NCBI RefSeq assembly: GCF_055900595.2
Contig: NZ_CM148325.1
Direction: 5' to 3' (one strand)
DNA length: 64,000 nt
Part shown: positions 17,248 to 22,602 of the stretch, piece after piece
Layout of the letters: the number at the start of each line of letters is the position of its first letter
How positions within the stretch are numbered: the stretch's first letter is position 1
The notes under the pieces: model-generated
Told to the model about the DNA's origin: nothing
The model's database searches: none
The model's input: the letters and a program-made list of their open reading frames with translations, nothing else
Program-made: the position numbers and the translations under genes

Positions 17248-17290
17248 TGAGGTGTACTGGCAATAGCGGACACAACCATTTGTTCTTTTT

Positions 17291-18109
17291 TTAAGCAGCT
17301 ATCTGATGATATTTTTCCCTGAAGGCTGCCGGGGAGATATTCCCCAGACGAGAGTGACGACGCTGACGATTGTAGAAAATCTCAATGTATTCCCGTATTA
17401 CTGAGATGGCTTCATCCCGGTTATTAAAACGATAGTGGCTCAGGCTCTCATTTTTCAGCGTTCCCCAGAAGCTTTCCATCGGAGCGTTGTCGTAACAGTT
17501 ACCTTTACGCGACATTGATGTTTTCAGACCAAACTGCTCCTGTATGACCCGGTAATCGTATGCGCAGTACTGTGAACCTCGATCAGAGTGGTGGATTAGC
17601 CCGGCAGGTGGGCGCTGGCTCCTGAGCGCCATAAACAGGGCTTTACCTGTCAGCTCTTTTGTCATGCGCTCTCCCATGGCGTAGCCGACAATTTCGCACG
17701 TATAAACATCTTTGATGCCAGCGAGGTACAACCATCCCTCCTGTGTGGCAACATACGTCAGGTCCGCCACCCAGACCTGATTTGGTGCTGTAGGAGCGAA
17801 CGTCTGGTTCAGCAGATTTGGCGCAACTGGCAGATTGTGGTTCGAGTTCGTAGTCGCTCTGAACTTGCGTTTCTGCTTACAGCGTAGCCTTAGCTCCTTA
17901 CGAAGACGTGCCAGTCGGTCACGACCAACGATGATGCCATTCTCTGCCAGCTCCGTCTGGAGCCGCCGGGTTCCATATGTTTCGCGAGTGCGGATATGTG
18001 CCACCTTAATCTCCAGTTTTAGCCGCTCATCACTTTGTTTTCTGTCTGAGGGTTCATGCTGTACCCAGTTGTAATAACCGCTCCTGGATACACCAAATAC
18101 CTGACACAT
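17291..18109 (-). CDS. IS600-like transposase OrfB
   Basis: 272 aa DDE integrase (..VWVADLTYV..HHSDRGSQY..); matches IS600 OrfB as recalled. Confidence 0.8.
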   Translation of the reverse strand: MCQVFGVSRSGYYNWVQHEPSDRKQSDERLKLEIKVAHIRTRETYGTRRLQTELAENGIIVGRDRLARLRKELRLRCKQKRKFRATTNSNHNLPVAPNLLNQTFAPTAPNQVWVADLTYVATQEGWLYLAGIKDVYTCEIVGYAMGERMTKELTGKALFMALRSQRPPAGLIHHSDRGSQYCAYDYRVIQEQFGLKTSMSRKGNCYDNAPMESFWGTLKNESLSHYRFNNRDEAISVIREYIEIFYNRQRRHSRLGNISPAAFREKYHQIAA

Positions 18110-18654
18110 CGCTTCAATGGGAAATTGTTGTCGCCATTGTTCGATTAACGCGTATTTTTCAGCGACTCCTGTGCAAAATACGCGGTTGTAGATTCAATCT
18201 GTCAATGCAACACCCCTTTCAATTATCTCTTTCGGTGTTTTGAACTTCAGTGTCTTTCTCGGTCTGTTGTTTAGCTGAGCAGCAACCAGATCTAGTTCAT
18301 GTTGAGTATATTGGGCAAGACATGTCTTTTTAGGAAAGTACTGCCGAATTAGCCCATTTGTGTTCTCATTTGTTCCCCGCTGCCAAGGACTCTGAGGATC
18401 GCAGAAGTAAACTTTAACGCCGGTGCTGACAGTAAATTCTAGATGTCTGGCCAGTTCCATTCCTCTGTCCCATGTCAGTGATTTTCTGAGTTCTGACGGT
18501 AAACTCAGGAATTTGTCGGTAAGAGCCTGATTTACTGAGACAGAATCTTTGCCCCTGAGTCTAAGGATGATCGTATAACGTGATTTTCGGTCTACAAGTG
18601 TGTAACCGGCTCATTTAAACCGTCTGGTCTGTTTCCTCCGGCTCTACAAAAATA

Positions 18655-19332
18655 ATGTCCATCATTTTTAATGGACACTATCGTATGAAACACCGGACCT
18701 GGATCACTGAAGCTTTACGTCTTCACTTTGAAGAACATTTACCCCGGGTTGTGGCCGGGCGTCGCCTGGGTGTACCAAAATCAACAGTTTGTAGTATGTT
18801 CGTGCGCTTTCGGAGAGCTGGCCTTTCGTGGCCTTTGCCCGCAGGCATGTCGGAGCAGGAACTTGATGCCTGCCTTTACGGACAATTTTCCACGGTACCA
18901 GTCGTACGTCCTGAAAGCACCGTTATATCCGAAGCCCCCGTGGTAAAAAAACGTCCCCGGCGGCCCAACTTCCCTTATGAGTTTAAAATCGCCTTAGTGG
19001 AGCAGTCACTGCAGCCCGGAGCCTGTGTGGCGCAGATCGCCCGGGAAAACGGAATCAACGATAACCTGCTCTTCAACTGGCGCCATCAATACCGGAAAGG
19101 TGGCCTGCTGCCTTCCGGAAAAAATATGCCGGCACTGCTTCCCGTGACGTTAACGCCGGAGCCGGATAATAAAATCCCGGCCCCCGCACAGGAACCAGAG
19201 CGGATAAATACACCGTCCGACAGTCTGTGTTGTGAGCTGGTTCTGCCGGCCGGAACTCTCAGGCTTAAAGGTAAACTGACGCCGGCGTTATTACAGACAC
19301 TTATCCGCGAAATAAAAGGGAGCAGCCACTGA
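18655..19332 (+). CDS. IS66-family accessory protein (orf1, HTH)
   Basis: First ORF of IS66-type element. Confidence 0.7.
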   Translation: MSIIFNGHYRMKHRTWITEALRLHFEEHLPRVVAGRRLGVPKSTVCSMFVRFRRAGLSWPLPAGMSEQELDACLYGQFSTVPVVRPESTVISEAPVVKKRPRRPNFPYEFKIALVEQSLQPGACVAQIARENGINDNLLFNWRHQYRKGGLLPSGKNMPALLPVTLTPEPDNKIPAPAQEPERINTPSDSLCCELVLPAGTLRLKGKLTPALLQTLIREIKGSSH

Positions 19333-19679
19333 TGATATCTCTCCCTGCAGGTTCGCGTATCTGGCTGGTTGCAGGTATCACCGATATGCGAAATGGCTTT
19401 AACGGCCTGGCATCAAAAGTTCAGAACGTCCTGAAGGATGACCCGTTCTCCGGACACCTGTTCATCTTCCGCGGACGCCGGGGTGACCAGATAAAAGTGT
19501 TGTGGGCTGACAGTGACGGACTGTGCCTCTTCACCAAACGCCTGGAGCGGGGCCGCTTCGTCTGGCCAGTCACCCGTGACGGCAAGGTGCACCTTACTCC
19601 GGCTCAGTTATCCATGCTTCTTGAAGGTATCAACTGGAAGCACCCGAAACGAACGGAACGCGCTGGAATCCGCATATAA
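19332..19679 (+). CDS. IS66-family Orf2 (TnpB-like)
   Basis: 115 aa, MISLPAGSRIWLVAGITDMR.. typical IS66 orf2. Confidence 0.8.
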   Translation: MISLPAGSRIWLVAGITDMRNGFNGLASKVQNVLKDDPFSGHLFIFRGRRGDQIKVLWADSDGLCLFTKRLERGRFVWPVTRDGKVHLTPAQLSMLLEGINWKHPKRTERAGIRI

Positions 19680-21270: not shown

Positions 21271-22008
21271 ATATCAATACGGTTCTGACGAGTCGCTTAC
21301 ACAAGTGTGGCTATATGAGAGTTTTTTGTACCTGAGACTAAATCGCCCTCCCAATGTCCCAGAGAGCGTCTGTTATCGATATTTCGGGAACGTTCGTGAA
21401 TTGGTGTTCCGTTCACTATGTTAATCGTACCTCTTTCGCCTTTGCGGGTATGACGCCTGCCATGGCGAAGGCTATGCGACCGTCGCAGATGCTGTATATT
21501 CAGGTGGTGTAGCGCTTCACGGCTACGAAAGTACAGCGTTTTATAAATTGTCTCAGGTGATATTCGCAGCGTTTTTTGACGTGGTTTTGTTCGCCTTAAC
21601 CATCCTGATATTTGCTCTGGAGACCATTTCATCTCCAGCTTTTCCAGAACAAGCTTTCGCAATGGTAAATTTTGATCCAGTAAGCACGGTTTTGGCCTTT
21701 TCGCCATTCTGTTGGCTCGGTTATTAGCATCAACAGCTTTGTAATAGCGTCTGCCCCGATTACGCTGAACTTCACGTGAGATCGTCGAAGGACTGCGATT
21801 CAGCGCAGTAGCTATCGCACGAATGCTCATTTTGGCTGACAAACCAGCTCGTATCTCCTCGCGCTCAGACAGTGTCAGGTGAGCTACAGCCCGCTTACGC
21901 TCATGGGGTTTTATGCCGCCAGTATCCCTTAACATAGTGAAGATCGTTCCGGGTTTTGAACCCAGGATATTCGCTATTTCACTGAAGCCTGTTCCGTTCT
22001 TCCATAGT

Positions 22009-22377
22009 TCAAAAACAGAGGCTTTTTCCTCTGCTGTAAATGTTCGTCTCATTCAAAAAACCTCCGCAACCCCATGTTTTCACATAACTGTTGCGTTGAC
22101 CAATTGAATCTACAGTTGCTTTTTTTAATATATCTCGCTCAAGGCGAGCTTCATTTAACGCCTTACGCAGTTGCAGAATTTCAGATTCCAGTTCAGCCAC
22201 CGTGCGGGAACCAGGAGTACCGAGCCCTTTTCTGGCGGCGGTAACCCATTGTCCTAAAGTGCCTTCAGGAAGAGATAATCGGGAAGCGCCTTCACTGATC
22301 GAAAGTTGATTTTCAAGAACCGTTCTGACAGCTTCGGCTTTGAACTCTTTAGAGTAACGTTGGGTTTTTCTGCTCAT
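22009..22377 (-). pseudogene. IS600-like OrfA with C-terminus replaced by IS30 sequence
   Basis: MSRKTQRYSKEFKAEAVRTV.. matches IS600 OrfA until ..ILKKAT, then reads into IS30 end. Confidence 0.75.
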
Positions 22378-22428
22378 TATTAGCTCCTTCTGATGCCATT
22401 CTATTTCAGGAAGGAGTGTCCGTTAAAC

Positions 22429-22602
22429 TCAGGCTACCTCAGTTGCATTCCAGCCATGATCCAGAATATGTGCATTTTTTTGCCTGATAGTTTCTTTTTT
22501 TATTCGCTCATGTTTAAGGCATAACAGGCAGATAAATAATGTCAGAAAAAGAAAGCTAATAATGAGAGCAAGAGCGATATAGTCTGTCACAGGGTAATAC
22601 AT
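22429..22602 (-). CDS. candidate small single-TM protein (57 aa), 3' end runs into IS600-like terminus
   Basis: ATG with GGAGAG Shine-Dalgarno just downstream of sat terminator; hydrophobic helix IALALIISFLFLTLFICLLCL; speculative. Confidence 0.2.
   Translation of the reverse strand: MYYPVTDYIALALIISFLFLTLFICLLCLKHERIKKETIRQKNAHILDHGWNATEVA

Follow-up and report, generated by a model that had tools for sequence, protein, structure and literature searches.

The question raised by positions 17248–22441 of a 64,000-nucleotide stretch of contig NZ_CM148325.1 (assembly GCF_055900595.2; hereafter the window) is how three insertion sequences (IS) came to lie one inside another beside the toxin gene sat, and whether the two inner ones reached their places by chance. 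An initial annotation, made from the letters alone, had described an IS66-family element inside IS30 inside an IS600-like element. Comparison with other genomes makes it very probable that three successive transpositions took place in a gene just downstream of sat, the two inner ones at sites that have been hit repeatedly. All of the parts are known elements, and the nesting itself is ordinary and already known; the new part is that both inner insertions occupy re-used sites, above all an octamer within IS30 that looks like a natural hot spot for the IS66 family.

The junctions were checked by reading positions 16700–22700 of the window and by script, and the locus is composed of the following features, own positions being those within the element concerned:

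16824–17247, minus strand: 3' part of the host gene; GTT at 17245–17247 is the left copy of the IS600 duplication.
17248–18186, minus strand: right-hand part of IS600, own positions 326–1264, including the right terminal repeat; orfB open reading frame (ORF) at 17291–18109.
18187–18601, minus strand: right-hand part of IS30, own positions 807–1221, with the C-terminal part of the transposase and the right terminal repeat TGTAGATTCAATCTGTCAATGCAACA.
18602–21300, plus strand: complete ISCro1, 2,699 bp; tnpA at 18655–19332, tnpB at 19332–19679, tnpC at 19699–21270.
21301–22114, minus strand: left-hand part of IS30, own positions 1–814, including the left terminal repeat.
21297–22052, minus strand: truncated IS30 transposase ORF of 251 aa, last residues HIATLV.
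22115–22441, minus strand: left-hand part of IS600, own positions 1–327, with the left terminal repeat, orfA and the A7G frameshift motif.
22009–22377: chimeric orfA' ORF.
22442–22602, minus strand: 5' part of the host gene; GTT at 22442–22444 is the right copy of the IS600 duplication.

The nesting is thus confirmed, and now placed to the base, with matched target duplications at all three levels. IS600 (17248–22441, minus strand) has TG..CA ends (start TGAGGTG, finish CCTCA), terminal repeats that match at 18 of their first 26 positions, and a 3-bp duplication of GTT. It is split by IS30 (18187–22114, minus strand), whose 26-bp terminal repeats TGTAGATTCAATCTGTCAATGCAACA and TGTAGATTCAATTGGTCAACGCAACA match at 23 of 26 positions and which is bordered by a 2-bp duplication of GT at 18185–18186 and 22115–22116. 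IS30 is split in turn by the IS66-family element (18602–21300, plus strand), which begins GTAACCGG... and ends ...CGCTTAC (read inward from that end, GTAAGCGA...), its imperfect terminal repeats starting with GTAA and matching at 18 of the first 26 positions. Its flanking repeat, first given as 7–8 bp, proved to be the octamer ACAAGTGT, with copies at 18594–18601 and 21301–21308; 8 bp is the normal duplication size of the IS66 family. Excision of the innermost element with one copy of ACAAGTGT leaves an IS30 of exactly 1,221 bp in which the transposase ORF, broken as first described between HIATLV and DRKSRY, is restored to an intact 383 aa, and further excision of IS30 with one GT leaves an IS600 of exactly 1,264 bp with intact orfA (100 aa) and orfB (272 aa) and the A7G frameshift motif TTAAAAAAAG. 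By chance, an exact repeat of 8 bp would arise with a probability of about 1.5e-5, and with both elements perfectly reconstituted coincidence is ruled out.

Many E. coli chromosomes and plasmids carry copies annotated as ISCro1 that match the innermost element at 100% identity along all 2,699 bp, and copies spanning at least 80% of its length occur in 1,492 genomes; ISEc8, the reference first suggested for it, was rejected at an identity of only 71–78%. ISCro1 was first named in Citrobacter rodentium. Its three proteins match Pfam models (HTH_Tnp_1; TnpB_IS66; DDE_Tnp_IS66 with zf-IS66, LZ_Tnp_IS66 and DDE_Tnp_IS66_C) and NCBIfam models (IS66_access_TnpA, IS66_TnpB and transpos_IS66), all three passing the curated cut-offs of the IS66 models in both databases; the earlier view of an intact element of about 2.7 kb holds. 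Known copies share with the window copy the length, the tnpA-tnpB-tnpC order and the 8-bp duplication, without differences in the element itself, so that only the placement inside IS30 is new. A published ISCro1 insertion likewise measures 2,699 bp with an 8-bp duplication (PMC12115866).

The reconstituted IS30 combines all features that define the element, namely 1,221 bp, 26-bp repeats, a 2-bp duplication and a 383-aa transposase with an N-terminal helix-turn-helix and a DDE/rve core; the transposase matches HTH_38, rve and the NCBIfam model transpos_IS30, and the element is 99.75% identical to a K-12 copy. The outer element, first called IS600-like, is IS600 and needs no '-like', its parts being 99–100% identical to copies annotated as IS600 by NCBI (the left-hand part 100% to other IS600 copies, the right-hand part 99.9% to the IS600 of strains SK1144 and Nissle 1917). 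It has the length of about 1.26 kb, the TG...CA ends, the 3-bp duplication and the orfA/orfB pair joined by an A-rich –1 frameshift motif that characterize this IS3-family element, and orfB matches Pfam rve and HTH_21 as well as the NCBIfam IS3 transposase model transpos_IS3.

The order of insertion, IS600, then IS30, then ISCro1, is a direct observation, as are the anatomy and the intactness of ISCro1, and the relative chronology first proposed from the nesting is supported both by this topology and by comparison of genomes. Population counts were made in 5,426 complete E. coli genomes, of which 176 carry the empty IS600 target site and 567 carry IS600 at it; the empty target is contiguous in JE86-ST05 as well. 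Two of the closest relatives, Nissle 1917 and SK1144, have the same island, IS600 site, GTT duplication and IS30 position and orientation, with flanks 99.9–100% identical. They differ from the window in the third layer: in Nissle 1917 an IS3-family element, ISEc52, lies at IS30 own positions 1156–1160 in place of ISCro1 at 807–814, whereas SK1144 has no third layer, its uninterrupted IS30 being 100% identical to the reconstituted one. Since SK1144 carries that uninterrupted copy at the same locus, ISCro1 arrived in situ. In Dog168 the third layer at this locus is ISEc23 at own positions 1160–1167, and in an ENA metagenome contig, ERZ27293236, with the same sat locus, it is ISCro1 at 807–814, in the orientation opposite to that in the window. 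The IS30|ISCro1 junction was found in 0 of the 5,426 complete genomes, the right junction between the right inverted repeat (IRR) of ISCro1 and IS30 not having been searched separately. PLSDB plasmids, JGI metagenomes and species-representative genomes likewise yielded no IS30|ISCro1 junction, and neither exact nor degenerate junction patterns gave a match in any of the four scans of the latter two. The innermost junction is thus private to the source strain among all collections searched. A count for the Nissle-type IS30|ISEc52 junction is unusable, since the figure at 80% coverage or more is inflated by the joining of nearby pieces; other junction counts prone to this were read from single-piece rows only.

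Cast as a sequence of events, these data very probably correspond to an insertion of IS600 (IS3 family) into the gene for a 193-aa hypothetical protein with duplication of GTT, followed by insertion of IS30 into IS600 with duplication of GT, which parted orfA from orfB. With the two frames separated by IS30, no OrfAB transposase is possible. Finally, ISCro1 entered IS30 at codon 251/252 of the transposase, at the start of the catalytic rve domain, duplicating ACAAGTGT and leaving a 251-aa N-terminal stub; the TAA stop of this stub comes from the GTAA tip of ISCro1. Because ISCro1 alone encodes a full set of TnpA, TnpB and TnpC, it is the only autonomously mobile layer, and the suggestion that it may still move remains plausible for an element 100% identical to many annotated copies. 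The accompanying statement that only the innermost element has intact ORFs holds for transposase function, but IS30 and IS600 both retain intact ends, through which a transposase supplied in trans could in principle move them. Action of the IS30 transposase in trans is documented (PMC9333248).

The second step involves a site that IS30 has used repeatedly. At a coverage of 80% or more the IS600|IS30 junction is present in 1,653 genomes and at several loci, about two thirds in the same orientation and one third in the opposite one as judged from an evenly spaced sample of rows. O157:H7 and DETEC-P1056 carry IS30 at the identical IS600 dinucleotide in opposite orientation, and in K-12 the interrupted IS911 copies of CP4-6 and KpLE2 carry it at the homologous position beside the frameshift motif, in the same orientation and again with GT duplicated; the K-12 arrangement differs in its host element, IS911, and in the absence of a third layer. 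Events in both orientations and in IS911 must be independent, and the site therefore behaves as an IS30 hot spot. The target, GCAAAATACGCG[GT]TGCTTTTTTTAA, is self-complementary at 14 of 26 positions, partly palindromic and A/T-armed, and lies 3–5 nt downstream of the A7G frameshift signal of IS600. A preference for nearly palindromic hot spots and duplications of 2 bp are established traits of IS30 (PMC9333248). The 2-bp duplication is found here too, and the partly palindromic target may answer to the natural hot-spot targeting described by Olasz and co-workers, with the lambda LHS as example. The O157:H7 nest is likewise an IS66-family element in IS30 in IS600, with IS30 at the identical dinucleotide. 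It differs in the opposite orientation of IS30, in having ISEc8 (2,442 bp) at own positions 350–357 with the duplication GCGTAATC, and in the deletion of the remainder of IS30 and of the orfA side of IS600. ETEC4068 and ZYB39, in turn, have ISEc23 within the right terminal repeat of an IS30 whose flank is of the K-12 IS911 type. As a separate observation, IS30 in the leuX island of SCZE5 (NZ_CP051222.1) has the orfB part of IS600 on one side and the orfA part of IS911 on the other, a hybrid that indicates recombination between two IS30 copies living in different IS3-family hosts.

The abundance of this junction also lends itself to another explanation, namely that the 5.2-kb nest, or its 2.5-kb IS600::IS30 core, came to the locus pre-assembled by way of the IS600 ends and a transposase acting in trans, in which case the order would not have been set here. 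In a prophage of BS74R-D, IS600::IS30 does occur complete, with the identical internal junction and a 3-bp duplication (GCG) of its own, making mobility of the 2.5-kb unit possible; the same junction lies beside eltAB on a plasmid of enterotoxigenic E. coli (ETEC) and at other loci, and the roughly 1,650 genomes that hold it exceed the 567 with IS600 at the sat locus. Yet recurrence is explained equally well by an IS30 hot spot, proven in at least one instance by the opposite-orientation insertions, and for the innermost layer the identical, uninterrupted IS30 at the same locus of SK1144 speaks against arrival as a finished nest. Pre-assembly is accordingly an unlikely, if still serious, alternative to three insertions at this locus.

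The third step, under the reading of successive insertions, struck IS30 at own positions 807–814, the octamer ACACTTGT. Five distinct IS66-family junction types, the window included, are known at this octamer:

Window: right end of ISCro1 beside the N-terminal part of IS30; both junctions and the duplication.
ERZ27293236: left end of ISCro1 beside the N-terminal part of IS30.
Z1323PEC0008 and several draft genomes: ISEc23, with one of its ends there.
SRR22715077: ISEc23, with its other end there.
GCA_000815495.1: a third IS66-family element.

Z1323PEC0008 shows both ISEc23 junctions together with the same 8-bp duplication, within a four-level nest. Recombinational inversion cannot exchange which end of an element meets a given flank, and these junctions are therefore separate insertions. 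Were insertion uniform, only about 6e-8 IS30 sites would be expected to receive five or more of 30 insertions. The 251-aa IS30 product that results from insertion at this octamer occurs on 34 contigs in an exact-sequence cluster look-up and in 89 blocks of a gene-position index. We infer from the recurrence at both sites that the two inner insertions reflect target preference and not chance, and the octamer is a probable IS66-family hot spot; no description of such a hot spot in IS30 was found in the openly searchable literature. The balance tips slightly towards a view of IS-into-IS insertion as hierarchical and site-directed, with IS30 disabling IS600 and IS911 at a single dinucleotide by their frameshift signal and IS66-family elements having used ACACTTGT at least five times independently. 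Two side observations concern the same element. NZ_CP148289.1, of Z1323PEC0008, holds at 2884847–2894926 the four-level nest, with ISEc23 in IS30 (at the same octamer) in an IS3-family element in ISEc43. Other truncated IS30 transposases recur in the same protein cluster, 243 aa long on 73 contigs and 337 aa long on 13, and may mark further points of repeated interruption.

Several results weigh against this interpretation. The element names follow published lengths and the way NCBI annotates near-identical copies. The IS600 target matches the lambda LHS at 15 of 26 positions, a level reached by 22% of shuffles and hence not significant, so that the resemblance was dropped as evidence of that kind and kept only for its register: the best match of the IS600 and IS911 targets within lambda 33200–33400 coincides with the reported LHS insertion centre, which is the sole suggestive part of the likeness, and the case for a hot spot is better made by insertion at the same site in either orientation. 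As regards the octamer, three of the five configurations are known from a single junction only, and the inference of a hot spot carries an ascertainment bias, since the other examples were traced through a truncated protein that only this site produces. The ten distinct duplicated octamers yield neither a shared target motif nor an obvious consensus. The idea that the target mimics an IS66 terminal repeat was rejected: when a weight matrix of seven IS66-family ends was run over IS30, the best site in the vicinity of the octamer came only 42nd and scored –5.6. Finally, IS66-family elements have also entered IS30 at no fewer than six other positions, with verified duplications:

Own positions 350–357: ISEc8, in O157:H7.
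Own positions 1017–1024: ISCro1, in ABWA45.
Own positions 1159–1166: IS66-family element, in DETEC-P1056.
Own positions 1160–1167: ISEc23, in Dog168.
Own positions 1206–1213: ISEc23, in ZYB39.
Own positions 1210–1217: ISEc23, in ETEC4068.

Those at 1159–1167 and 1206–1217 form pairs in opposite orientations, 1 bp and 4 bp apart, near or inside the right terminal repeat; some of the duplicated octamers there fall within the short palindromes TGAAGTTCA and GATTGAATC, and the ISEc52 of Nissle 1917 lies in the same 1156–1160 region.

The failure to find either a target motif or a terminal-repeat mimic would suit a different account of the octamer, in which its recurrence reflects replacement of a resident IS66-family element by end-targeting, or selection retaining the 251-aa DNA-binding stub that might repress IS30. 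With both ends of these elements starting with GTAA, insertion in either orientation gives the identical 251-aa product with its TAA stop, and end-targeting is documented for IS30 and IS911 (PMC9333248). For the IS66 family itself, however, there is no direct evidence of end-targeting; the window and NZ_CP148289.1 have clean 8-bp duplications on both sides, as in simple insertions, and the closely spaced pairs at the two other IS30 positions resemble ordinary preferred regions. Replacement or retention is improbable. An assembly artefact is more improbable still: all three elements are multi-copy repeats of the kind that often break or mis-join short-read assemblies, and this exact nest is absent from every collection searched, but mis-joins yield neither family-specific duplications of 3, 2 and 8 bp at all three levels nor perfect reconstitution of 1,221 and 1,264 bp, and nests of like build occur in independent complete genomes.

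The nest is set in a virulence island of the pheV type. Positions 1–51739 of the window are colinear with the pheV island of E. coli Nissle 1917 at 99.94–99.96% identity, an island that contains the nan cluster, iha, sat, iutA-iucABCD and pap remnants, and the nest adjoins sat on its downstream side. The gene disrupted by IS600 runs on the minus strand from 22602 down to 16824 and encodes a hypothetical membrane protein of 193 aa; joining the flanks restores an ORF of 582 nt, which is contiguous in JE86-ST05 at 99.8% identity, the gene being intact there, and in CFT073 the flank is present with no IS600 at this site. Between the disrupted gene and an IS3-family pseudo-element (about 14876–16408) lies a 168-bp left-end remnant of ISEc8 (16449–16616), 99.4% identical to the O157:H7 copy. 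An IS3-family element of 1.33 kb is present in two inverted copies (7520–8852 and 36893–38225), which enclose about 28 kb with iha, sat, the aerobactin genes and the IS nest, and could act as an inversion substrate or delimit a composite module. Further along, two IS1 copies (45687–46458 and 47710–48481) surround papX and pap remnants as they do in Nissle 1917, in which papA is frameshifted. Colinearity with Nissle stops in the 3' end of a tRNA-Phe at about 51717–51739, placing the island boundary at about 51.7 kb; a tRNA scan found no complete tRNA in the window, only this 3' end. Beyond it, positions 51740–64000 belong to a different, CP4-like island module with genes for a GTPase, DUF4942 and DUF932, whose best match among complete genomes is only 96% identical. 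The boundary and this module together suggest tandem islands.

The nest by itself is of little consequence, disrupting as it does a hypothetical gene downstream of sat and two elements that were already selfish. The proposal to use its junctions as a lineage marker holds for the IS30|ISCro1 junctions (18562–18641 and 21261–21340), which are strain-specific within the sat/iha/aerobactin island lineage common to Nissle 1917, and fails for the IS600|IS30 junction, widespread as that is across loci; at the sat locus at least four different third-layer insertions separate sublineages. More generally, an IS66-family element in IS30 in an IS3-family element is a recurrent E. coli architecture that arises from re-used target sites, and, given such re-use, it would be naive to take nests of this kind for unique events of history or for identity by descent. 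The IS66 family is mechanistically obscure, and the IS30 octamer offers a testable way into its choice of target. If the preference is real, it would be the first defined natural target preference found for this family, and the octamer would provide a ready substrate for in vitro work.

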